IMG/VR virus record: IMGVR_UViG_2563366858_000008
Direction: 5' to 3' (one strand)
DNA length: 39,834 bases
Source: a virus
Taxonomy: Duplodnaviria > Heunggongvirae > Uroviricota > Caudoviricetes
Shown in pieces: positions 3,088 through 36,007 of this stretch. The position numbers and the translations under genes are program-made. Each line of letters starts with the position of its first letter. The first letter of the stretch is position 1. The notes below the pieces were generated by a model. It did no database searches. It had not been told where the DNA came from and worked only from the letters and a program-made list of their open reading frames with translations.

Positions 3088-3190
3088 AAAGACCACCGTT
3101 TAATGTGCATGAAGCCCCACTTAGTTAGTGAAATAACACACATATTAAACCATATATGAATCACATTTAAACGGATAACTCTTCACGAAA

Positions 3191-3205
3191 TTACCCTATA
3201 GGTGA
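3191..3205. promoter_or_regulatory. Operator-like inverted repeat TTACCCTATAGGTGA (1 mismatch to TTACC-N5-GGTAA) upstream of the acetyltransferase gene
   Basis: 37 bp upstream of ATG 3242 in AT-rich promoter region. Confidence 0.4.
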
Positions 3206-3241
3206 TATCATTGGGTTATCCTATTCAAAACGATAGCAATT

Positions 3242-5182
3242 ATGTCTTATTTAAAATACAGAACAGATATTGATGGGCTGCGAGCTATTGCGGTTTTGCT
3301 GGTCGTGCTGTACCACGCAAACTTTCCTATTCATGGTGGTTTTATTGGTGTAGATGTTTTTTTCGTCATATCAGGATATCTCATTACCAACATCATATAT
3401 AAAGAGACTAAAAGAAATATTTTTTCATTCCTTAATTTTTACAAACGTCGAATAAAGCGATTGCTCCCAGCTTTTGCTTTTCTTCTTTTATTTTTATTTG
3501 TTTACTGCAAATTATATTTGATGCCAGATGAACTTATATCATTCTCTAAAAGTGCGGTATACGCTCTTCTTGGCATAAGCAATTTCTATTTTTTTAGTGG
3601 CACAGGTTACTTTAACTCAACCTCTTATGAACCGCTTTTACACACATGGTCGCTTTCCGTTGAAGAGCAGTTCTACATTGTATGGCCTTTCATCGTTTTC
3701 ATGCTCGCTCGGAACTCAGGGACAAAAAAAGCAATAATAATATCCTCATTACTATTTATTGTATTCCTTGGTATTTCACAGTATGGAGCAGTTAATTATA
3801 AAACAGCAGCGTATCTCCTACTGCCTTTTAGGTTCTTTGAGTTGCTCTCAGGTGCCCTACTTGCTATCTATAAAGATTCAATAACAAAACATCTGCGCCA
3901 CGGTTCTGTAATTTCACTGGTCGGCGTAATGCTGATTGTGTTGAGTTCATTATTTATAAATTCTAACACGCCATTTCCTGGGTTCACTGTTTTGCCTACA
4001 TGTTTAGGCGCTGTAATGCTTATTGCTGCAGGTGACTCATCCAAAAACTTCATTTCTAAAGTGCTGTCTTTAACTCCAGTTGTTTATGTAGGAAGAATTT
4101 CCTACTCTCTTTATTTATGGCACTGGCCTGTACTGATTCTTGCTGAATACAGGGGGATCGATCTTACGGCCTTAAATGCGACGGCGCTCATACTTATCGC
4201 ATTCATCATGGCAAGCATAAGCTATCACTTCGTTGAAAAGCCATTTAGGAAGGATTCGCTGCAATATTTCAGGACTGCATTTATAACCATCTACCTGATA
4301 CCATTAATAGTATCCGCTGCCTATGCAGCGTACATTTTAAAAAATGATGGTTTTCGCGCCAAAAGTTCAGAGTTAGTATCTGAATTAGAAGAGAGAAACG
4401 CGACAAATATTATGCGCCCACAGTGTATTGATAAATTATTTATCGGTAATGTAAATGACTGTCATCTTGGCGTTAATAAAGGCGAAGTAGATGGCGTGCT
4501 TCTTGGTGACTCCTTTGGTAATGCATATGCTTACTTTATTGATGAACTTGCGAAAGATGCTGGAATATCAATAACAGATACTACATATAGCTCAACACCT
4601 GTAATATCAGGAATTTATGTGCAGGATATCAGGAATAAGATATCTGACATAGATGCTAACCTGATAATGACATATACAAAAAACAGGCTGGAGTATGCAG
4701 CAAAACAAAAGTTCGCGATAATTTCCGTTTTTTGGGATCAGTACGGGCCACAAAATAATTACTTCCGTATCTTCGATAAAAACGGTGACGTATCGGAGAA
4801 TGCTTACCAGTTGCAATCTGAAGCAATAAAATATCTGCTGTCCAATGGCGTGAAAGTTTACATCATTGCAAGACCTTACCAGTCTATTGGCCCTGCTGCG
4901 ATAAACAAACTGCGCCAAATTAAGCTGCGGCATGGGGATGTAACTACTGAAAAATATGAATACGGCGTAAAGAAAGATGATCGGATAGAATACAAGTTAA
5001 AGCAGGAGTTCCCTCAGATAACGCTAATCGATCCTAACGATGTACTTTGCCACAAAGGGGAATGTGATGCCATCGTGGATGGAAAGATCATTTTCAGAAC
5101 TGATGGTTCACACCTGAATGCTGTTGGAGCAAAAAAAATCGGGGAAGAGTATTTGAAAAACTACGCAAACCCATTTCGATAA
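3242..5182 (+). CDS. O-antigen O-acetyltransferase, acyltransferase-3 membrane domain plus SGNH domain (OafA/Oac-like); lysogenic conversion
   Basis: N-terminal multi-TM domain with conserved YRxDIDGLRAIAV...H motif; C-terminal GDSFG (SGNH) motif; 646 aa; AT-rich relative to neighbours. Confidence 0.85.
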   Translation: MSYLKYRTDIDGLRAIAVLLVVLYHANFPIHGGFIGVDVFFVISGYLITNIIYKETKRNIFSFLNFYKRRIKRLLPAFAFLLLFLFVYCKLYLMPDELISFSKSAVYALLGISNFYFFSGTGYFNSTSYEPLLHTWSLSVEEQFYIVWPFIVFMLARNSGTKKAIIISSLLFIVFLGISQYGAVNYKTAAYLLLPFRFFELLSGALLAIYKDSITKHLRHGSVISLVGVMLIVLSSLFINSNTPFPGFTVLPTCLGAVMLIAAGDSSKNFISKVLSLTPVVYVGRISYSLYLWHWPVLILAEYRGIDLTALNATALILIAFIMASISYHFVEKPFRKDSLQYFRTAFITIYLIPLIVSAAYAAYILKNDGFRAKSSELVSELEERNATNIMRPQCIDKLFIGNVNDCHLGVNKGEVDGVLLGDSFGNAYAYFIDELAKDAGISITDTTYSSTPVISGIYVQDIRNKISDIDANLIMTYTKNRLEYAAKQKFAIISVFWDQYGPQNNYFRIFDKNGDVSENAYQLQSEAIKYLLSNGVKVYIIARPYQSIGPAAINKLRQIKLRHGDVTTEKYEYGVKKDDRIEYKLKQEFPQITLIDPNDVLCHKGECDAIVDGKIIFRTDGSHLNAVGAKKIGEEYLKNYANPFR

Positions 5183-7444: not shown

Positions 7445-7600
7445 GTTAAATCTCCAGATAGTCGCAGCACCCGTTGCGCCGCATATCTGGTTATTCTATT
7501 ACCTGAAAAACCATATATGGATGGAAAGAGTGTTAATGTGAGCAGATATTACCTTTCAGGTGATTCGCAAAACGTGCTGGATAGCAAACAAATTATCTGC

Positions 7601-7897: not shown

Positions 7898-7904
7898 ATT
7901 TAAA

Positions 7905-7920
7905 GGCCGCGAAAGCGGCC
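7905..7920 (-). terminator. Intrinsic terminator after the lipoprotein gene
   Basis: GGCCGC-gaaa-GCGGCC hairpin; on the minus strand followed by TTTAAATTT. Confidence 0.6.
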
Positions 7921-7921
7921 T

Positions 7922-7933
7922 GTGACATGTCAC
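7922..7933. repeat. 12-bp perfect palindrome GTGACATGTCAC, copy 1
   Basis: Between lipoprotein stop (7937) and terminator hairpin. Confidence 0.8.
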
Positions 7934-19247: not shown

Positions 19248-19567
19248 TCACCTCCGTTACCGTACAGAGTTTCAGCCGCTGATTTTTCTACATCCCCGGA
19301 AACAGGAGCGATCGCCATATCAGTGATCTGCAGATCGGCGCTGCGATTAACACCATCGTCAGTTTCTCTGGCAGACAGGCCTCGAATAACAGCCTTTGCA
19401 GTTATCATCACTTCTGTTCCGACGCCCTGAGGTTGCGCCTTCAGCTTATTCAATGTGTCGTTATTAAGAGTGATGCACAGCCCCCACGGGTATTCATCGC
19501 GAGTTCTGGTTTCTCCGCTCTCATCCTGGTAGCTGTCAGTGCCGGTTTTGAGGTTTACGAGTTCCAT
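19244..19567 (-). CDS. Head-proximal structural protein
   Basis: AGGAG RBS 5 nt before ATG 19567; 107 aa. Confidence 0.5.
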   Translation of the reverse strand: MELVNLKTGTDSYQDESGETRTRDEYPWGLCITLNNDTLNKLKAQPQGVGTEVMITAKAVIRGLSARETDDGVNRSADLQITDMAIAPVSGDVEKSAAETLYGNGGE

Positions 19568-20452: not shown

Positions 20453-21445
20453 TTACACCACGCGGGCTTCTGTTTCCAGAAGCGCATCAGTTTCACGGAT
20501 TGGTACACCACGGAATGACGTCCACCACTCGCCTTCTGTCTCTTTTACGCTGATCGCCAGAGATGTTTTCTCCAGAGATTGCAGATCAAGAGCCTGGCCT
20601 ACAGTGCGGTTCATGTAGAACACCGGGCGACCCATGCCACGATTTGGAATGCGATGCAGTGCTTTAACCATCAACTTCGCAATATTTGCGGCAGAGGAAG
20701 GTTCTGAAAGATTGCTGACATCGATGTTTGCAATGCGAACAACATAACGCCAGTCACGCAGAGCAAGTCCGTTGTCCCATTTGTAATGGGTACGGTAGCC
20801 TTCGTACTTGCCGCCATTCGCATCTTCCAGTGTCACCTGGCCTTTATCTTCCATCTGGATGCCAGCCTTCTGCCCTTTCGGGAAGATGCCATGCACGGTG
20901 TTTTCGCCCCACACCACTAACCAGATTGAGGTGTTATCTGTACCCGTGCCACCAGCATCAATGATGTTCTGAGCATTACCCGCAGACAGGCTGGAATAGC
21001 GGGAGGACAGTCCCATAAACTGCTGAGGGTTAACGCTGGAATCACCATAAAACAGTGTCTGCGCCATCTGCTGATTCATCGCTTCAATAAATGCGCGGTC
21101 TTCAGACAGGCGGAATTCGGCGGTATTACCGTTCAGATCAGCCAGTGACTTATCGACTTCAGCATAGGTTTCCAGCATGCCAACGGAATCGGTTACCTGC
21201 ACTGTGGTTGATTTGCTTGGCTGTACGCCATAGTTCAGCAAACGCCAGGTAGCTGAAGGTAAACCAGAACGAATGGTGGTTCGGTGTCCGGTAGGAAGGT
21301 TCCCTTCGACAAAAGGCATATCCTGAAGGATCGGGTTAGTTTGACCGAGAAGCTCGATAATCTTATCGACTTTCCCGTTTGGATCGACGCGCTTACCCCA
21401 GTCAGCCAGCGTTAGCGCAGTTAAGCCTTTAACAGCCATTGTCAT
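20453..21445 (-). CDS. Major capsid protein
   Basis: 330 aa; follows scaffold and portal in canonical head-gene order. Confidence 0.8.
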   Translation of the reverse strand: MTMAVKGLTALTLADWGKRVDPNGKVDKIIELLGQTNPILQDMPFVEGNLPTGHRTTIRSGLPSATWRLLNYGVQPSKSTTVQVTDSVGMLETYAEVDKSLADLNGNTAEFRLSEDRAFIEAMNQQMAQTLFYGDSSVNPQQFMGLSSRYSSLSAGNAQNIIDAGGTGTDNTSIWLVVWGENTVHGIFPKGQKAGIQMEDKGQVTLEDANGGKYEGYRTHYKWDNGLALRDWRYVVRIANIDVSNLSEPSSAANIAKLMVKALHRIPNRGMGRPVFYMNRTVGQALDLQSLEKTSLAISVKETEGEWWTSFRGVPIRETDALLETEARVV

Positions 21446-24435: not shown

Positions 24436-24450
24436 TTACCTTTAAGGTAA
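24436..24450. promoter_or_regulatory. Operator-like inverted repeat TTACCTTTAAGGTAA (perfect)
   Basis: Perfect TTACC-N5-GGTAA in the noncoding region upstream of the tRNA. Confidence 0.6.
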
Positions 24451-24772: not shown

Positions 24773-24849
24773 GTGGCATTAGCTCAGTTGGACAGAGCAA
24801 CCGCCTTCTAAGCGGTTGGTCGCAGGTTCGAATCCTGCATGCCACGCCA
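24773..24849 (+). tRNA. tRNA-Arg (anticodon UCU), phage-encoded
   Basis: Full cloverleaf: acceptor GTGGCAT/ATGCCAC, D-arm GCTC/GAGC, anticodon stem ACCGC/GCGGT with loop CTTCTAA, T-arm GCAGG-TTCGAAT-CCTGC, discriminator G and encoded CCA. Confidence 0.95.
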
Positions 24850-25052: not shown

Positions 25053-25424
25053 ATGAGTGACAAAGACATTGAATCTGAAATTCAGGCTAAAGGTTTAGCC
25101 GCGCCGCGCGTTACGCCAGACCATATCGAGAGCATTATTGCTCAGGAGGCATATTTCACAGCAGAAGATGGTGTCTTTGGCGTAGCCATAAAAGCGAAAC
25201 ATACTGGCGGAGAGGTAAACTACCAGCCGCACGAATCACTTTCTCTGCTGACGTTCTGCGTTCTGGTGCTGCGCAACGGCTTCACCGTCACCGGAGAGAG
25301 CGCCTGTGCAAGCCCGGAAAACTTTGATGCGGAAATTGGTCGGAAGATTGCCCGGCAGAATGCTGTAAACAAAATCTGGATGCTTGAAGGTTACTTGCTG
25401 AAGCAGAAGTTAAGCGAGCAATAA
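25053..25424 (+). CDS. Moron protein of unknown function, co-located with the tRNA
   Basis: AAGGTGAG RBS; 123 aa; opposite strand to flanking terminase and portal genes. Confidence 0.65.
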   Translation: MSDKDIESEIQAKGLAAPRVTPDHIESIIAQEAYFTAEDGVFGVAIKAKHTGGEVNYQPHESLSLLTFCVLVLRNGFTVTGESACASPENFDAEIGRKIARQNAVNKIWMLEGYLLKQKLSEQ

Positions 25425-25428
25425 CACC

Positions 25429-25440
25429 GTGACATGTCAC
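25429..25440. repeat. 12-bp perfect palindrome GTGACATGTCAC, copy 2
   Basis: 4 bp after the stop of the 25053 gene, immediately before a terminator. Confidence 0.8.
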
Positions 25441-25514: not shown

Positions 25515-26990
25515 TTAAGCATAGGGATCGTAATCTATAATGGCCTTGCCTTGCTGGTTCTGCTGCCCGGGAATTCGCAGACGCTTAGACACAGGGAACG
25601 CAAACGTCAGCAGTAGCGCATCGCCTTTACCCGGCGAACGCCCAAGCCGCTCCTTGATATCTTCCTTCGGTTCGATAACGATTTTACCGTCCACTCGAAC
25701 TTTGTACTCTGCCGCCGACAGGTCGTCCGCTGTTTCCTGGTCATCCAGCATGCCGCCCAGCCTCAGCCATGTCTTGCATGAGTTGAACATCTCCCCACGC
25801 TTGTTGAGCATCTGCGGGTCAGTAGACGCGCCACCGAACGGAACAAGTTGCCATGTGCGCCCCCAACCGTCACCGATTGACTTCAGCCCGGTACCGTAAC
25901 CGAAGTCGATGAACACCGCGTCAGCCTGATACTGGTCTTCAAAGTCAGCGATACGCTTTGCCATAATCAGATCGTCAGTGGTCTTGTTGCCGGTCCACAG
26001 CACCTTACTGTGCAGCCCCTGCCGCAGGTATATCACCGCGTCATCAACACCGGAGTATGCAGGGTCAACGCCGATTATCACCGGAGCATGTGCCACCTGC
26101 GCAGCAGTTACCACCCGTTTCATTGCCTCGTCAGTAAGACCGGTAGGGATAAACTGCAATTCAGATGCATCCGGGAATATGCCGCGCACACGGATTTTAA
26201 CGAAGTCGCTGTCTTCCCCGTAGTCATCAACCCATTTCTGCAACTGCTGTTTGTTAGTGCCTTCCACCGTCCGGCTGTCAATCTGCGCAGTTTTCCAGCG
26301 GTGTTTATATTTGCGGAAACATTCGCGGAAACGCCCGGTGTTACGTGTAGGGTTTCCGAATGCCACCCAGATAATCTCAGTGTCTTCGTCCGTCAGCGCC
26401 CCCTCAGCAACTTCCCACACCAGATCCGCAATGTTCGACGCTTCATCGAATACCACGATGATGCGTTTGCGCTCGTTGTGTAGTCCGGCGAATGCCTCAG
26501 TGTTGTGCTCAGACCAGGGTATTGCGTCAGCCCGCCACCGCTTGTCGTGCCCTGGGTCATTGCTGTACATCGCGGTAGCGGTACAGGTAAACCAGTCTTT
26601 CGTGATAGCAAGGTTCGACCACTTGATAATTTCCGGCCAGGTCTTCGTTCGTAGCTGGTTGTCGGTGTTGGCGGTCACCACGACCTTACAATCCTCGCAA
26701 GTGGACATGCCCCAGTTGATCAGCATTGAGATAAATGCGGATTTACCAATACCGTGACCAGAAGCGCGTGCCAGCATAAGCGGCTGATAGCGCGTCTCCG
26801 GATTCTGCAGGTGATCACGTATCTCTCGGAACGCATCAGCCTGCCACTGACGTGGGCCGGTAGCATGTGCCAGTTCAGTCCCCTCTTCCCCCCACGGGAA
26901 CGCATAGAGGGCATAGCCAAGCGGATCGTGAGTGAACCCTGCAATATCCTCGATCAACTGCTCTTCAGGAGATAACGCTGTATCTGTCAC
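25515..26990 (-). CDS. Terminase large subunit
   Basis: 491 aa; N-terminal ATPase region with P-loop-like GHGIGKS and C-terminal nuclease-like region; ATGA overlap with small subunit. Confidence 0.9.
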   Translation of the reverse strand: MTDTALSPEEQLIEDIAGFTHDPLGYALYAFPWGEEGTELAHATGPRQWQADAFREIRDHLQNPETRYQPLMLARASGHGIGKSAFISMLINWGMSTCEDCKVVVTANTDNQLRTKTWPEIIKWSNLAITKDWFTCTATAMYSNDPGHDKRWRADAIPWSEHNTEAFAGLHNERKRIIVVFDEASNIADLVWEVAEGALTDEDTEIIWVAFGNPTRNTGRFRECFRKYKHRWKTAQIDSRTVEGTNKQQLQKWVDDYGEDSDFVKIRVRGIFPDASELQFIPTGLTDEAMKRVVTAAQVAHAPVIIGVDPAYSGVDDAVIYLRQGLHSKVLWTGNKTTDDLIMAKRIADFEDQYQADAVFIDFGYGTGLKSIGDGWGRTWQLVPFGGASTDPQMLNKRGEMFNSCKTWLRLGGMLDDQETADDLSAAEYKVRVDGKIVIEPKEDIKERLGRSPGKGDALLLTFAFPVSKRLRIPGQQNQQGKAIIDYDPYA

Positions 26991-27583
26991 TGATTGCCAT
27001 CCTGACGTTCTTTCAGTCTCTTCCTGGCTGCCGCTATGCGATCAGCAATTGTCACATTCACATTAACATCCAGGCGTTCTTTGAACGCGTTGACATCAAC
27101 ATGCTTACCAATCAGCTCAAGGTTCTTCACCTTGTCAGGCCATTTAATTTTTTTGAGGATTGTCTCTATCGAATCCTCGTTCATGTTCATGATGGTCGAT
27201 GACAGATCAAAGCCACTAAGCGTAGTGCGCCAGATTTTCGGCCACTCACGGATTGGTTTAAGGCTCCCATCGTCGTTGAGGATATCGATCACGTCCATCT
27301 GGTCGATCTCCACCAGGCGCATGAGAACGTAATCAGCACTGACGCGCATTCGTTTGTTGCGCTCCTCCATCAACTCGGCAATCCGTTTTTGAATGCGTAC
27401 ATCGCGCATCATGACACTGGCTTTAACTGCCGCTGTATTTGGGGAGAACCCTGCGTTAATCGCTGCCTGAGTCTGGTTTTCAGGCGTTTTGATGTATGAC
27501 TGGCAATAAGCCTCCTGCATTGCTGTGAGCGGCTTAAATTGCGTTGATTTGCGTTTATAGGTTTTAGGTTCAGCAGGCATCAT
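26987..27583 (-). CDS. Terminase small subunit
   Basis: Start MMPAEPK at ATG 27583 (the track's N-terminal extension to 27661 crosses a terminator and operator repeats); motif QEAYCQSYIKT...AAINAGFS typical of small subunits. Confidence 0.75.
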   Translation of the reverse strand: MMPAEPKTYKRKSTQFKPLTAMQEAYCQSYIKTPENQTQAAINAGFSPNTAAVKASVMMRDVRIQKRIAELMEERNKRMRVSADYVLMRLVEIDQMDVIDILNDDGSLKPIREWPKIWRTTLSGFDLSSTIMNMNEDSIETILKKIKWPDKVKNLELIGKHVDVNAFKERLDVNVNVTIADRIAAARKRLKERQDGNQ

Positions 27584-27597
27584 AACCACCGTGGTAA
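27583..27597. promoter_or_regulatory. Operator-like repeat TAACCACCGTGGTAA (1 mismatch), overlapping terS start
   Basis: Adjacent to the perfect copy at 27601; 18 bp centre-to-centre. Confidence 0.45.
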
Positions 27598-27600
27598 TAG

Positions 27601-27615
27601 TTACCGTTGTGGTAA
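27601..27615. promoter_or_regulatory. Operator-like inverted repeat TTACCGTTGTGGTAA (perfect)
   Basis: Between the late-leader terminator and the terS start codon. Confidence 0.6.
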
Positions 27616-27622
27616 TAGTACC

Positions 27623-27652
27623 ATGCAAAATAAAGCCGCCATAGTTGGCGGC
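27623..27652 (-). terminator. Intrinsic terminator immediately upstream of the terminase genes (tR'-like)
   Basis: GCCGCC-aactat-GGCGGC followed by TTTATTTTG on the minus strand. Confidence 0.65.
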
Positions 27653-27657
27653 AGTAT

Positions 27658-27870
27658 TCAAAGTCCATCAAATTCATCGTAAAAACTCTCGTCAAGATAC
27701 CCTTCCCATTTACCGCGAATGAAAATTACATCCTCGCCGCAAGGGTGCTGACTGTCGATAACTATATCCCTCCTGGCGCAACCATACTTATGCATGAGAA
27801 ATTTAACCTCTTTCGGAAAATTTGCTGAGTTATCTCTCATATCTTCAAGGTCGTAGCGTATTTTTGGCAT
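27658..27870 (-). CDS. Small protein of unknown function
   Basis: Start MPKIRYD at ATG 27870 with GAAGGTG RBS; 70 aa; the track start at 27891 is a GTG inside the palindrome. Confidence 0.5.
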   Translation of the reverse strand: MPKIRYDLEDMRDNSANFPKEVKFLMHKYGCARRDIVIDSQHPCGEDVIFIRGKWEGYLDESFYDEFDGL

Positions 27871-27879
27871 AACACCTTC

Positions 27880-27891
27880 GTGACATGTCAC
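27880..27891. repeat. 12-bp perfect palindrome GTGACATGTCAC, copy 3
   Basis: Contains the TGA stop of the 27888..28226 gene and abuts the RBS of the 27658..27870 gene. Confidence 0.8.
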
Positions 27892-28226
27892 ACTATTAAT
27901 TTTGTTTCATGCCAGCCTTTAGTCACCCAGCATTGCGAGTCACCATTGCACGGGCATGAATTAACTGGAACTCTCTCGCCGCACTTACCGCAACGTTTTC
28001 TGCTGATCGATTTTATACGCCCGCGCACGCGTGCATCATCCTGGCGGATCAGTAACGCTATATACTCACCAAATTCGTAAGGCACACGCCCGGGGCGACG
28101 CGTGGCGCAGTTCCGCTCCAGCATTTCAATTTCCTGAGCATCAAGCACAATCTCCAGCTTACGTACACCGGATGCAGCTTGTCTGGCTCTCTGAGCGGCT
28201 TTGCGCTCTGCTGCTGATTTAGCCAT
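27888..28226 (-). CDS. Zinc-ribbon protein (candidate late-gene regulator)
   Basis: Start MAKSAAERK at ATG 28226 (in-frame ATG 28232 and GTG 28238 upstream); C-terminal CGKCG...CPCNG four-Cys motif; last regulatory-sized gene before the late-operon terminator. Confidence 0.5.
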   Translation of the reverse strand: MAKSAAERKAAQRARQAASGVRKLEIVLDAQEIEMLERNCATRRPGRVPYEFGEYIALLIRQDDARVRGRIKSISRKRCGKCGERVPVNSCPCNGDSQCWVTKGWHETKLIV

Positions 28227-28311
28227 TACCATATCCACCCAATTTCACCAGACATAATTCTCGCAATCACTATCATAACCAAAGTGATAATCACAACTTT
28301 AACTGGCGGCA

Positions 28312-29259
28312 TTATTCACCATCCTGCTCAGGCGGTTCTGGCAGCGGCATCCAGTGTGATGGAATCCACGACGCACCAGGAATTATCCAACCATCATTAG
28401 CGTCAGGATGTCCCGGTATGTAAGTCGCCCATTTCATTCGCCAGTCACCTTTCCTGTCAAACTCCACGGCAACAAGAACGGCTGTTTTGGTATCCGGCAT
28501 TCGCTCACTACAGCTTATCCAACCATCCGGAGTTACCGGATAGTTGCCAGCCAGTCTACGCAAAACAGCCTTAACAGCCTCAATACGGTCATCATCGCAA
28601 TTTTCCAGCGTATCTATGCGGTCGAGCATGATGATTGCGTTATCAATATCAGGATTGCCGGTCCACTCATTACCGCGATTGGATTCGGCAGCCTGGTTGC
28701 CACGTACTGGTTGATTCTCGGCTTTACCCTGTCTGTCGTCGCTGCATGAATGCCCTTCCAGCCAGACCAGTGCTTGTCGCATGAAATACGCAATATGCTT
28801 GCCGTGGTAATCGTCTTCATCGATGTGAAAAGCGATACTGCGGATATATTCAATTGCGTTTTCAATGGCCTCTAACGCTATCGGTGCTGGCGGAGTGGTA
28901 TATAGTTTTCGACATTTGTTTATCCAACCGGCATGGTCAGGCGTGTCTGTAAAGCGCAAATCGTCTTCGTAGCCCTCACGACTACGTTCTTTCCATTCCG
29001 TCCACGGAACACCGCTATTCCAAGTGGGGCGAGTGCAGGACTGATACAGAACAGGCTCTGCTTCCAGCGATGCCAGCACAATTCGTGCCAGCTCACGCAC
29101 TACTTCCGGGGGCGCGTAACGGTCATTCAGGTCATCCCACAGGCGTAGCATGTTATCGCTACTAGGGTGAACATCCTCGTTAGTTCCGGCAAGCGCACTA
29201 ATAACCTCATCGGCTGCCTCAATAATTTTCAGAGCTTGTTCTCTGGTAATAGTGGTCAT
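28312..29259 (-). CDS. DUF551-type phage protein
   Basis: 315 aa; C-terminal WMPLPEPP motif typical of DUF551 (recalled); ATGA overlap with upstream gene. Confidence 0.55.
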   Translation of the reverse strand: MTTITREQALKIIEAADEVISALAGTNEDVHPSSDNMLRLWDDLNDRYAPPEVVRELARIVLASLEAEPVLYQSCTRPTWNSGVPWTEWKERSREGYEDDLRFTDTPDHAGWINKCRKLYTTPPAPIALEAIENAIEYIRSIAFHIDEDDYHGKHIAYFMRQALVWLEGHSCSDDRQGKAENQPVRGNQAAESNRGNEWTGNPDIDNAIIMLDRIDTLENCDDDRIEAVKAVLRRLAGNYPVTPDGWISCSERMPDTKTAVLVAVEFDRKGDWRMKWATYIPGHPDANDGWIIPGASWIPSHWMPLPEPPEQDGE

Positions 29260-31431: not shown

Positions 31432-31446
31432 TTACCTCTAAGGTAA
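31432..31446. promoter_or_regulatory. Operator-like inverted repeat TTACCTCTAAGGTAA (perfect)
   Basis: Overlaps RBS/leader of the 31084..31428 gene. Confidence 0.6.
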
Positions 31447-31493: not shown

Positions 31494-31508
31494 TTACCCG
31501 ACAGGTAA
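31494..31508. promoter_or_regulatory. Operator-like inverted repeat TTACCCGACAGGTAA (perfect)
   Basis: Just downstream (minus strand) of the terminator-like hairpin after the P-like gene. Confidence 0.6.
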
Positions 31509-33182: not shown

Positions 33183-33383
33183 TCAGCTTGAGTGTTGTGG
33201 GGAGGAATTAATCATGATCTGCTTAATCTCTGCCCTGATGCGACGGTTTGATTCCATGGTGCACTCAACACAGTGTCCGTTGTAAACCCAGCGTTCACTG
33301 TCATGTCCGTGCTTACATGGTTTTCCGGTGTAGTAGCGTTTAAGTCCGCGCTTTGCGGCATCAATACGTGTAATGATTTCCAT
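33183..33383 (-). CDS. Small zinc-binding protein
   Basis: Start MEIITRIDAAKRG at ATG 33383; CKHGH...CVEC motif; 66 aa. Confidence 0.45.
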   Translation of the reverse strand: MEIITRIDAAKRGLKRYYTGKPCKHGHDSERWVYNGHCVECTMESNRRIRAEIKQIMINSSPQHSS

Positions 33384-33463
33384 GGTAAGCCCTGTTATTA
33401 GTATTGGGATTACGGTTATTTTGTGCTGACACAAAAAAAAGATCAACCAGATTTGGTTTTTTG

Positions 33464-33478
33464 TTACCTTTTAGGTAC
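33464..33478. promoter_or_regulatory. Operator-like repeat TTACCTTTTAGGTAC (1 mismatch)
   Basis: Between the terminator after the cro-like gene and the next gene. Confidence 0.45.
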
Positions 33479-33480
33479 GA

Positions 33481-33511
33481 ATAGATATGAAAAGACCGCC
33501 GGATGGCGGTC
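33481..33511 (-). terminator. Intrinsic terminator after the cro-like gene (tR1-like position)
   Basis: GACCGCC-atcc-GGCGGTC followed by TTTTCATATCTAT on the minus strand. Confidence 0.65.
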
Positions 33512-33848: not shown

Positions 33849-33863
33849 TTACCTGTTGGGTAA
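33849..33863. promoter_or_regulatory. Operator site TTACCTGTTGGGTAA (perfect)
   Basis: Third site of the tripartite operator. Confidence 0.65.
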
Positions 33864-33918: not shown

Positions 33919-34503
33919 ATGAAAAGTATCCAGGACGTCCGCAGGCAAAATCTCAACGACTTGATCGACCGTGAATTCAATGGTGTTCAGACGCGGATGG
34001 CAGAAAAACTTGGAACTCAGGCAAATCTGGTAAACCGCTGGGCTCTTGGCAAGAAGGTTATCGGCGACCAGGTTGCGCGAAAAATTGAAGCTGCCGCCAA
34101 TAAACCCCGTAACTGGCTTGATATCGATCGCTCGCTTTCTCAGGAAGGTTTTCAGCCTGTCGGCCCAAGCGACATTGGTCAGCTGGCGGCTCACAACCTG
34201 GAACGCTGGATGAGCGAAAGCCGCGACCTTTCAACACAGGGAAAACTTCACCGCGCATCCGGCGTCGCCCAGGTGACAATCAGCCGCCTGTTAAACAATG
34301 AGGTCAGCGTTTCCATTTCCACCCTGGAGAATGTTGCATCCGCATTCGGGCGTCACGGCTATGAATTACTGATTCACCCGCACGACCCTGCGACTATCAA
34401 CTATGACCGCTCGCGCTACGCATTGTTACCCGAAACAGAGAAGGCAAAGATCGAAAGTTACATTGAATTTGTCATCAGCCAGAACGAAAAAAACAAACAA
34501 TAA
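33919..34503 (+). CDS. Prophage repressor, tandem HTH (XRE-type), no autocleavage domain (cI-like)
   Basis: Two HTH-like segments (QTRMAEKLGTQANLVNRW and ASGVAQVTISRLL); 194 aa, no room for an S24 peptidase domain; divergent from cro-like gene. Confidence 0.7.
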   Translation: MKSIQDVRRQNLNDLIDREFNGVQTRMAEKLGTQANLVNRWALGKKVIGDQVARKIEAAANKPRNWLDIDRSLSQEGFQPVGPSDIGQLAAHNLERWMSESRDLSTQGKLHRASGVAQVTISRLLNNEVSVSISTLENVASAFGRHGYELLIHPHDPATINYDRSRYALLPETEKAKIESYIEFVISQNEKNKQ

Positions 34504-34523
34504 AATCATATTTTTCAGTAAGT

Positions 34524-34550
34524 AAGCCGCCTCATGGCGGCTTTTTTATT
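34524..34550 (+). terminator. Intrinsic terminator after the repressor gene
   Basis: AAGCCGCC-tcat-GGCGGCTT followed by TTTTTATT. Confidence 0.75.
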
Positions 34551-34560
34551 GCCAGCAAGA

Positions 34561-34575
34561 TTACCTTATGGGTAA
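34561..34575. promoter_or_regulatory. Operator site TTACCTTATGGGTAA (perfect)
   Basis: Upstream flank of the early-left promoter. Confidence 0.65.
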
Positions 34576-34622: not shown

Positions 34623-34637
34623 TTACCTCAACGGTAA
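34623..34637. promoter_or_regulatory. Operator site TTACCTCAACGGTAA (perfect)
   Basis: Immediately after the -10; would cover the transcription start. Confidence 0.65.
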
Positions 34638-35111: not shown

Positions 35112-36007
35112 TGCGGAACGCTGGAATCATGGATAGAACAAAATACATCGGAGGAAGCGATGTTGCAGGGATTCTTGGAATTAGCCCATGGCGCACCCCG
35201 CTTGAGGTTTATCTGGATAAGGTCCAGCCACGTGTCAAACCAGTAGACCCAAGCAAGCAGAAAGTTTTCACGCGTGGCCAGCGTATGGAGCCATACGTAA
35301 TAGACCTGCTTTCTGAGGAAACAGGGATGGAAATCGTTCATCGCGGAAACCGCTATATCCACCGTGATTACGATTTTATTGCAGCTGAGATCGATGCAGA
35401 AGCAGCGTCAGGCGAGAACATTGAGATCAAAACAGTTAGTCCGTTCAAAGCCAAAGAATGGGGAGAAATCCAGACAGATGCAATTCCTGTGCATTACACG
35501 GCCCAGGCCATGCACGGGTTGATGGTTACAAACAAACAGGTATGCGTTTTCGGTGTGCTTATCGGTGGCGACGACTTCCGAATCTATCGGGTTGAGCGTG
35601 ATGAAGAAACTATCCAGGCGATCTTAGAAAAAGAAATCGCTTTCTGGGACCGAGTGAAAAATCTTAACCCGCCGGAAGCTACCAGCGTAAGCGATGTATC
35701 GCTGATGTTTGAGAAAGATGCCGGGACAAGTATCGAGGCTGACGGAAAGGCACTCTCACTATTCAACGATCTACGAGACATGAAGTCACGCAGAAAATCA
35801 CTGGAAGAAGAAATAGCTATATCAGAAGAGAAGCTGAAGATGTACATGCAAGAGCACTCAGTCCTGACCCTGGACGGAAAGCCGCTCTGCACATGGAAAT
35901 CTCAGATCAGCAACAGATTCGACCAGAAGCTATTCCAGTCAGTACACCCTGAGTTATTCGAAAAATTCAAAACAACAACGACACAACGCGTCTTCAGAAT
36001 GAAGTAA
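35108..36007 (+). CDS. YqaJ-like recombination exonuclease (lambda Exo-type)
   Basis: N-terminal YIGGSDVAGILGISPWRTPLEVY motif typical of YqaJ-type exonucleases; immediately upstream of RecT. Confidence 0.8.
   Translation: MMRNAGIMDRTKYIGGSDVAGILGISPWRTPLEVYLDKVQPRVKPVDPSKQKVFTRGQRMEPYVIDLLSEETGMEIVHRGNRYIHRDYDFIAAEIDAEAASGENIEIKTVSPFKAKEWGEIQTDAIPVHYTAQAMHGLMVTNKQVCVFGVLIGGDDFRIYRVERDEETIQAILEKEIAFWDRVKNLNPPEATSVSDVSLMFEKDAGTSIEADGKALSLFNDLRDMKSRRKSLEEEIAISEEKLKMYMQEHSVLTLDGKPLCTWKSQISNRFDQKLFQSVHPELFEKFKTTTTQRVFRMK

Follow-up and report, generated by a model that had tools for sequence, protein, structure and literature searches.

In the lambdoid PR' layout, a promoter, a sigma-dependent pause element and tR' together constitute the substrate of Q. 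The locus analysed here belongs to a phiV10/epsilon15-like prophage (Uetakevirus) of Escherichia coli that is integrated beside guaA and is represented by a stretch of 39,834 nucleotides (in the following, the window). It resembles the Q-lambda, Q82 and Q21 systems in that the gene for a 112-aa protein is the last of the delayed-early operon and lies directly upstream of the late genes. Moreover, in many relatives the homologous gene precedes a promoter, a –10-like repeat and one or several terminators, corresponding to the PR'-tR' layout. In contrast to Q, the 112-aa protein is predicted to adopt a ribbon-helix-helix (RHH) and not the Q fold, shows no sequence similarity and is only about half the size, and its putative binding site, a symmetric palindrome, is located at the stop codon of its gene instead of lying inside a promoter. 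This palindrome is found 90–150 bp (other relatives) or 70–430 bp (Uetakeviruses) upstream of the nearest promoter, and in the window the terminator precedes the putative promoter.

Three other groups of described regulators share single properties with the 112-aa protein. The half-sites of the palindrome are identical to those of matS, the site of the host protein MatP, whereas the spacer comprises 2 instead of 3 bp, resulting in a 12-bp and not the 13-bp site GTGAC(A/G)N(T/C)GTCAC, which is present neither in the window nor in phiV10 or epsilon15. Besides, the model of the 112-aa protein lacks the N-terminal four-helix bundle and the C-terminal coiled coil of MatP and shows a Cys4 module instead, and the protein is phage-encoded, with sites tied to transcription-unit boundaries. 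With RHH repressors (Arc/Mnt, CopG, omega, ParD/TacA) it shares a predicted beta-alpha-alpha core following a basic N-terminal segment as well as a short palindromic target, and two 5-bp half-sites spaced 7 bp apart resemble the heptad logic of omega. It differs from these repressors by an additional long helix and the zinc module, by the lack of a Pfam RHH match and by a site located at the 3' end of its own gene and not in a promoter. With Ogr of the Ogr/Delta group (P2/P4) it has in common its small size, its phage origin and a Cys4 motif, while neither sequence nor fold similarity to that group was found. Finally, it resembles AlpA-type regulators as a small DNA-binding protein for which an action on polymerase at terminators is proposed.

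The relevant genes of the locus all have minus-strand orientation. Listed as they are transcribed, the replication genes are followed by a terminator with two operators and then by a DUF1064 gene, which in turn is followed by several accessory genes and a DUF551 gene (28312-29259), the 112-aa gene (27888-28226), a 70-aa gene (27658-27870), a terminator (27652-27623) and the terminase genes terS and terL. The features of the segment are as follows:

28239..28311, minus strand: intergenic gap with the dyad GTGATTATCAC (28284-28294), a mosaic joint in which a promoter is unsupported
27888..28226, minus strand: 112-aa gene of the epsilon15 gp49/phiV10 gp55/N15 gp46 family, product with predicted RHH and Cys4 zinc module
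27658..27870, minus strand: 70-aa accessory (cargo) gene between palindrome site A (see below) and the terminator, phrog_1541
27623..27652, minus strand: intrinsic terminator with a 7-bp GC stem, 4-nt loop and U-tract, kept in phiV10 and epsilon15
27615..27623, minus strand: extended –10-like element TGGTACTAT downstream of the terminator, putative terS promoter
27600-27616 (O1) and 27582-27598 (O2), no strand: tandem repressor-type operators of the ATTACC-N5-GGTAAT family, 17-bp palindromes
26987..27580, minus strand: terminase small subunit gene terS (Pfam Terminase_2, E 6.6e-30)

Both small genes that a preliminary description of this DNA had placed upstream of the terminase leader are present as minus-strand ORFs and are annotated by PGAP with 112 and 70 aa, respectively. 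The first ORF (27888-28238) encodes 116 aa when starting from GTG at 28238 and 112 aa from ATG at 28226, the latter being the start chosen by PGAP, and the second (27658-27891) encodes 77 aa from a GTG and 70 aa from the annotated ATG at 27870. The queried region is 100% identical to E. coli AF5, and matches to this region were obtained in 873 of 5426 complete E. coli genomes. Further downstream, between terL and the portal block, the plus strand carries a cargo island (24773-24849 and 25053-25424) composed of a tRNA-Arg (Rfam, 73 bits) and a Gp49-family gene (N4 gp49/Sf6 gene 66), each with its own terminator; the tRNA-Arg at 24773-24846 is the sole match of an Rfam RNA search of the region.

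The profile of phrog_536 matches the 112-aa protein over its full length (E 2.6e-54, residues 5-115), and homologues identified by tblastn include epsilon15 gp49, phiV10 gp55, the product of N15 gene 46 and phiKO2 gp45. With 149 clusters at 50% identity among 1.84 billion representatives, the family is small, and its members are publicly named "hypothetical protein" or, derived from PHROG, "transcriptional regulator". Scanning Pfam (E ≤ 0.1) gave only a sub-threshold match to DUF4457 and neither a Pfam family assignment nor an RHH family, PDB sequences gave no match, and in NCBIfam a weak N-terminal resemblance to a CopG-like LexA-regulated protein was seen (E 0.085). The cysteines already noted in the preliminary description are part of the motif C79-x2-C82 ... 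C91-x-C93 ... C99, which is conserved. Among 56 aligned diverse homologues, the most distant having 27% identity, C79 and C82 do not vary and C99 hardly does, an additional cysteine is found at 91/93, and in a distant subgroup four cysteines are invariant. AlphaFold2, when supplied with the family alignment, gives a confident model (pLDDT 91) with a basic helix (5-19), an extended segment (20-29) and a helix (30-42) in the N-terminal half, followed by a helix (52-75), a cysteine-rich loop region (76-99) and a last helix (100-107). Hence, the order of a beta-strand and two helices by which RHH proteins form a dimeric DNA-reading beta-ribbon is found in the model, and the 112-aa protein is, as modelled, an RHH domain with a C-terminal module of four conserved cysteines predicted to bind zinc. 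Foldseek with this model returned nothing significant.

By none of the testable properties does the protein belong to the Q family. Pfam (E ≤ 0.1) does not place it in Phage_antitermQ/Phage_antiter_Q or related families, bearing out the earlier statement that similarity to Q is not visible in the sequence, and neither a Q protein nor an Ogr-like protein was among the matches of the fold searches. The structure prediction against Q folds that had been suggested as a check thus shows a protein lacking a Q-type fold, and the comparison with Q originally drawn fails in sequence as well as in fold, since an RHH with a Cys4 module is predicted instead.

A feature overlooked in the preliminary description is a palindrome at the stop codon of the 112-aa gene (27880-27891), which recurs at two further positions of the window:

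27880..27891, no strand: site A, exact palindrome GTGACATGTCAC, overlapping the TGA stop of the 112-aa gene (27890-27888)
25429..25440, no strand: site B, exact GTGACATGTCAC, separated by 4 nt from the hairpin of the bidirectional terminator downstream of terL
7922..7933, no strand: site C, exact GTGACATGTCAC, directly adjoining (0 nt) the hairpin (7904-7921) of the terminator at the end of the structural-gene block

These sites are statistically real, as three exact copies in the 39.8-kb window compare with 0.01 expected from shuffled sequence. Variants with one or two mismatches occur at background frequency, and the palindrome therefore represents three discrete sites. In phiV10 and epsilon15, copies are found at the same three positions, the one at the phiV10 stop codon having a single mismatch, while BUCT554 carries the palindrome at both positions covered by the retrieved part of its genome, including that of site B. 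In all resolved close relatives from IMG/VR, the copy at the stop codon is exact. All three window sites lie just 5' of a terminator in functional orientation, A and C on the late strand and B on the opposite strand; with respect to the late strand, site B follows its hairpin and does not precede it. In the window as well as in N15, a further small gene follows, whose ribosome site comes shortly after the stop-codon palindrome.

The palindrome is co-inherited with the gene in unrelated phages too, GTGAC-N2-GTCAC accompanying it in at least 11 of the 16 phage lineages examined (designated below by L numbers where they have to be told apart). It overlaps the TGA stop of the homologue in N15, a P2-like Yersinia myovirus, L010/L098/L099, L092/L095, L106 and L109, and is situated 4-230 nt past the stop in L096, L009, L105 and Vibrio phage K303, whereas L107 and L093 show versions with one mismatch. 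Only L006, L011 and a Mu-like prophage (L094) lack it among the lineages examined. A perfect GTGAC-N2-GTCAC is expected by chance within 300 nt of a given point at about 1 in 1,700 loci, and the association between gene and palindrome is therefore not due to chance. While the half-sites are invariant, the two central bases vary (AT, CT, TG, AG, GG, GC, AC), which is the signature of a dimeric DNA-binding protein and not of an RNA stem. Accordingly, an RNA hairpin was dismissed as an explanation of the palindrome, given invariant half-sites without covariation and a variable centre. From these sequence comparisons, GTGAC-N2-GTCAC is probably the binding site of the 112-aa RHH-zinc protein, and the latter is very probably a sequence-specific DNA-binding regulator.

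The placement of the palindrome differs among lineages. In epsilon15, L009 and L096, the site is followed by 22-23 AT-rich nt and then a GC hairpin. In K303 and L009, one copy is found about 10-20 nt upstream of the terS start inside the late operon, and the P2-like Yersinia phage has a single palindrome with none at its late promoters. A 12-bp and a 13-bp form occur together in K303 (L102), with three 12-bp GTGAC-N2-GTCAC sites, one of them in the gap between the HNH gene and terS about 20 nt before the terS start, and one 13-bp matS-consensus site overlapping a stop codon (19491-19503, 21342-21353, 33227-33238 and 35942-35953). N15 (L104) has a second 12-bp copy inside repA (3238-3249).

The best argument that the 112-aa family controls late genes is its position at the early/late boundary, i.e., in the slot occupied by Q in lambdoid phages. 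In L009, L010, L093, L105, L107, L109 and the 36-kb Vibrio phage K303, the homologue is the last or next-to-last gene of the early operon and is followed by an intergenic region and then by holin, endolysin and terminase genes. This intergenic region holds a cassette common to at least seven lineages. It opens with a sigma-70 promoter whose –35 is good; a –10-like hexamer (TAnnGT or CAACGT, then GGTG) comes exactly 6 nt behind the –10, and beyond it lie a leader and between one and three intrinsic terminators:

L010, 4450-4646: cassette, holin gene downstream
L092, 5430-5553: cassette, holin gene downstream
L109, 3460-3630: cassette, holin gene downstream
L009, 4600-4741: cassette, holin gene downstream
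L102 (K303), 33330-33510: cassette, holin gene downstream
L096, 3490-3640: cassette, holin gene downstream
L105, 1180-1340: cassette, holin gene downstream

In L092, the –10-like hexamer is an exact repeat of the promoter's own TATCGT. The –10 hexamers of these predicted late promoters are poor (TATCTT, TATCGT, TAAGGT), and the palindrome lies upstream, its centre being about 93-146 bp from the predicted start in the lambdoid-type relatives. Such PR'/tR'-like cassettes occur in phages without a recognisable Q, and in the early-right operon of K303 no Pfam Q family was detected. In the window, no PR'-like cassette is present. N15, however, encodes a canonical Q (gene 40) and has an annotated late promoter and terminator, alongside gene 46 and the palindrome at its stop codon, and the 112-aa family is therefore not universally "the" antiterminator; in the Mu-like prophage, Mor is encoded besides the homologue. 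Hence, the proposal of a late-gene regulator at this position is reasonable for the 112-aa protein, whose homologues occupy the Q slot, and not for the 70-aa protein.

In several distant lineages, a tyrosine-integrase gene is found inside the early operon, either immediately or a few small genes upstream of the RHH-zinc gene, and a gene for an Rv2179c-like exonuclease is often located just before the RHH-zinc gene or the integrase gene. The loci concerned are:

L009, 2193-3431
L010, 1102-2379
L092, 3688-4968
L109, 1689-2945
L102, 29784-31016

The terminator previously proposed at 27623-27652 is a genuine intrinsic terminator, whose stem (27652-27635, minus strand) reads GCCGCCAACTATGGCGGC and is followed by the U-tract TTTATTTTG, with z = –4.75 over the surrounding 126 nt; in BUCT554, no terminator is present at the equivalent position. 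Its stem (27635-27652, GCCGCCaactatGGCGGC) is identical to that of the terminator after the gene of the 194-aa repressor (33919-34503), located at 34520-34545 (GCCGCCtcatGGCGGC followed by a T-run), and both same-stem terminators precede operators of one family. Immediately downstream, the sequence TGnTA(C/G)TAT corresponding to 27623-27615 is conserved in the window, phiV10, epsilon15 and BUCT554 and may represent a terS promoter, although it is not accompanied by a –35. A promoter employing GTGACA of the palindrome as –35 was also considered. Although it would be plausible for epsilon15 (N17-TAAATT) and for phiV10 (N18-CATGAT), such an element is not general and, in the window, is disrupted by the 70-aa gene.

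Also overlooked were the two operators between the terminator and terS, which account for the "direct repeat" visible in the terS leader, as this consists of two tandem 17-bp operators. O2 overlaps the ribosome site and start of terS, which likely begins with ATG at 27583 or 27580. PGAP and the phiV10 record let terS start with TTG at 27661 and run through the terminator and both operators, whereas the epsilon15 record has the ATG equivalent to 27580, preceded by a GGTGG ribosome site; the long form (26987-27661) is probably an annotation error. The equivalent ATTACC-N5-GGTAAT site is annotated as repressor-binding in the epsilon15 record, and it is on this annotation together with the placement of such sites at PL and PR that their assignment to the repressor is based. 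The members of this family in the window are:

24436-24450: ATTACC-N5-GGTAAT site
27582-27616: ATTACC-N5-GGTAAT sites (O1 and O2)
31432-31446 and 31494-31508: ATTACC-N5-GGTAAT sites
33849-33863: ATTACC-N5-GGTAAT site
34561-34575 and 34623-34637: ATTACC-N5-GGTAAT sites
3190-3206 and 7548-7564: one-mismatch operator copies near the tailspike and lysis blocks

Operators lie on both sides of an obvious promoter that follows the repressor gene (TTGACA at about 34598; PL) and of promoter-like sequence before the DUF1064 gene; others are present in the divergent cro/repressor region and ahead of the portal block. This distribution suggests that the prophage repressor directly controls late operons besides the early ones. 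In the simplest reading, each block including terS may have its own repressor-controlled promoter, and because the conserved extended –10 and two operators lie downstream of it, the terminator at 27623-27652 is possibly just the end of the upstream operon. Such an arrangement leaves room for read-through as a second route into the late genes. The idea of a regulator sitting directly upstream of "its" late terminator is weakened by the extended –10 and the operators following that terminator.

The gap upstream of the 112-aa gene (28239-28311, 73 bp) contains the TATGAT element and the GTGATTATCAC dyad described earlier, whereas their role in a promoter is unsupported. Scanning for sigma-70 promoters revealed none on the minus strand, i.e., the strand of the gene, and epsilon15 and phiV10 have no such gap, since the preceding gene overlaps the start of the regulator gene. 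Together with the first 8 codons, the gap recurs at about 95% identity downstream of the DUF551 gene in Stx2 phage 1717, in the form of a truncated remnant (MAKAAAERN*), and thus represents a recombination joint and not a demonstrable control region; a sigma-70 promoter within it was rejected on the same grounds. In Stx2-converting phages, the retained segment comprises 128 bp (window 28201-28328 versus 1501-1628 of Stx2 phage 1717, L101), extending from the 3' end of DUF551 through the 73-bp gap to codon 8 of the RHH-zinc gene, after which the sequences diverge. PHROG 34005 (40 aa) appears to be made up of such N-terminal remnants.

The 70-aa gene, put forward earlier as a further late-regulator candidate, is dispensable cargo and not a candidate for such a role. 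Its absence from most relatives had not been recognised: it is lacking in phiV10, which keeps only the last ~20 bases, in epsilon15, in about two thirds of the close relatives and in most phage relatives, and is present in about a third of the close IMG/VR relatives. Among the 873 E. coli genomes matching the region, 102 cover at least 80% of the query, a coverage seen only in records carrying the 70-aa gene. In other phages, the slot after the palindrome is filled by unrelated genes, such as a UmuD-like gene (BUCT554, Chlobot), gp47 (N15) or an ORF starting with MRLSH (Vibrio-type phages). The family is tiny (7 clusters), the model is poor (pLDDT 69), and neither an informative fold match nor a DNA-binding signature was found. 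A function of the 70-aa protein as late regulator or co-regulator, which its position between the RHH-zinc gene and the terminator might be taken to indicate, is extremely improbable, considering that phiV10, epsilon15 and most close relatives have the same late region without it, along with the replacement of the gene elsewhere and the lack of recognisable features. A toxin-antitoxin pair was likewise rejected, as the genes downstream of the 112-aa gene are non-homologous across lineages and often absent, and PADLOC, searching for defence systems, gave no match; in contrast to RHH antitoxins, no conserved partner toxin is encoded beside the 112-aa gene.

In the mechanism we prefer, the 112-aa gene would be the last conserved gene of a repressor-controlled "middle" operon beginning at the DUF1064 gene, and its product a dimeric RHH DNA-binding protein with a zinc module and GTGAC-N2-GTCAC as cognate site. 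Once accumulated, it would occupy the site at its own stop codon and those by the terminators of the terS-terL and structural blocks, so that RNA polymerase arriving from the upstream operon could read through the terminators at the boundaries and transcribe the packaging and structural genes. In logic, albeit not in structure, such antitermination would resemble that by lambda Q. That the 112-aa protein is in this manner the early-to-late switch of the phage is a real possibility falling somewhat short of an even chance, whereas antitermination as the mechanism, although preferred, is in itself doubtful, and an outcome of read-through rather than activation, insulation or repression is speculative. 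The preference is due to all three palindromes of the window lying just 5' of a terminator in functional orientation, and to the succession of site, AT-rich stretch and GC hairpin shared by epsilon15, L009 and L096. Several observations speak against it. The extended –10 and two operators downstream of the terminator may mean that terS is served by a promoter of its own, making read-through unnecessary; BUCT554 does without the terminator altogether, and on the late strand site B comes after its hairpin. Besides, N15 and the Mu-like prophage have a canonical Q with annotated late promoter and Mor, respectively, in addition to the homologue, and the single site of the P2-like Yersinia phage is not at a late promoter. 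Moreover, a distance of about 93-146 bp is too far for a Q-style contact with promoter-proximal paused polymerase, and the Q-type cassette is missing from the window.

The same sites could instead serve an element acting as boundary, roadblock or autoregulator at the 3' ends of transcription units, with the late genes driven only by their own repressor-controlled promoters. This fits the location of every window site at a transcription-unit end beside a terminator, the overlap with the gene's own stop codon just before the next ribosome site in the window and in N15, and the repressor-type operators ahead of each late block; in addition, RHH proteins are most often repressors, and the P2-like and N15 contexts require no new late activator. 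We nevertheless regard it as unlikely, as a roadblock would be redundant where strong intrinsic terminators already exist (sites A and C) and would shut off packaging in K303 and L009, where a site is just upstream of the terS start, and it would not be explained why the gene consistently occupies the Q slot ahead of promoter-terminator cassettes. Unlikely as well is an activator for which the palindrome is an upstream activating site, with polymerase being recruited to weak late promoters by class-I contact or looping. The good –35 and poor –10 hexamers of the relatives' late promoters downstream of the palindrome, and the putative terS promoter having no –35, would suit such a protein, and site centres at about –72 (epsilon15) and –92 (phiV10) from the putative terS start are compatible with class-I activation. 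Yet the distance between site and promoter ranges from about –72 to about –430 in Uetakeviruses, owing to cargo insertions, and from –93 to –146 in other lineages, helical phasing being inconsistent, the operator/promoter region of the next block is 0.4-1 kb away from sites B and C, and the terminators after the promoters in relatives would be left unaccounted for. Considering the matS-like half-sites, the protein might finally have a MatP-like role outside transcription, bridging or marking a small number of sites in the phage genome and thereby serving its organisation, replication or packaging. This is quite improbable in view of the 12-bp instead of 13-bp spacing, the absence of the MatP bundle and coiled coil, and a placement at the gene's own stop codon and at terminators and promoters that is more typical of transcription control. 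Homology to MatP was also rejected, as hhalign of the family profile against E. coli MatP gave E 0.13 over 24 columns, which is not significant.

Returning to antitermination, it may be asked whether the epsilon15 gp49/N15 gp46 proteins constitute a fourth class of phage late antiterminators structurally unrelated to Q. In this case, a matS-like palindrome at the 3' end of the regulator's gene would serve as the site from which an RHH-zinc dimer is loaded onto RNA polymerase, with re-loading at block-end terminators in Uetakeviruses, and the dimer would control the cassettes of PR'-like promoter, pause element and terminator in many Q-less siphoviruses. We consider the existence of such a class rather doubtful.

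A literature search yielded no paper on the function of the 112-aa family or on its palindrome. What is new is a probable late-boundary regulator built on a different fold and having a distinctive operator at its own stop codon, and it is plausible that the 112-aa protein and the palindrome represent a new kind of late-gene switch. Podoviruses of the epsilon15/phiV10 type are common prophages of E. coli and Salmonella. If the protein is indeed their early-to-late switch, it would be a new structural solution to a classic problem, common to podo-, sipho- and myoviruses of enterobacteria, Vibrio and Aeromonas, and the gene together with its stop-codon palindrome would provide a signature by which late-control regions can be annotated in Q-less prophages. 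The half-sites identical to those of matS, moreover, raise the question of cross-talk with the Ter-organising protein of the host. Even on modest readings, a clean pair of gene and site emerges from the sequence comparisons, putatively a new regulator-operator system.
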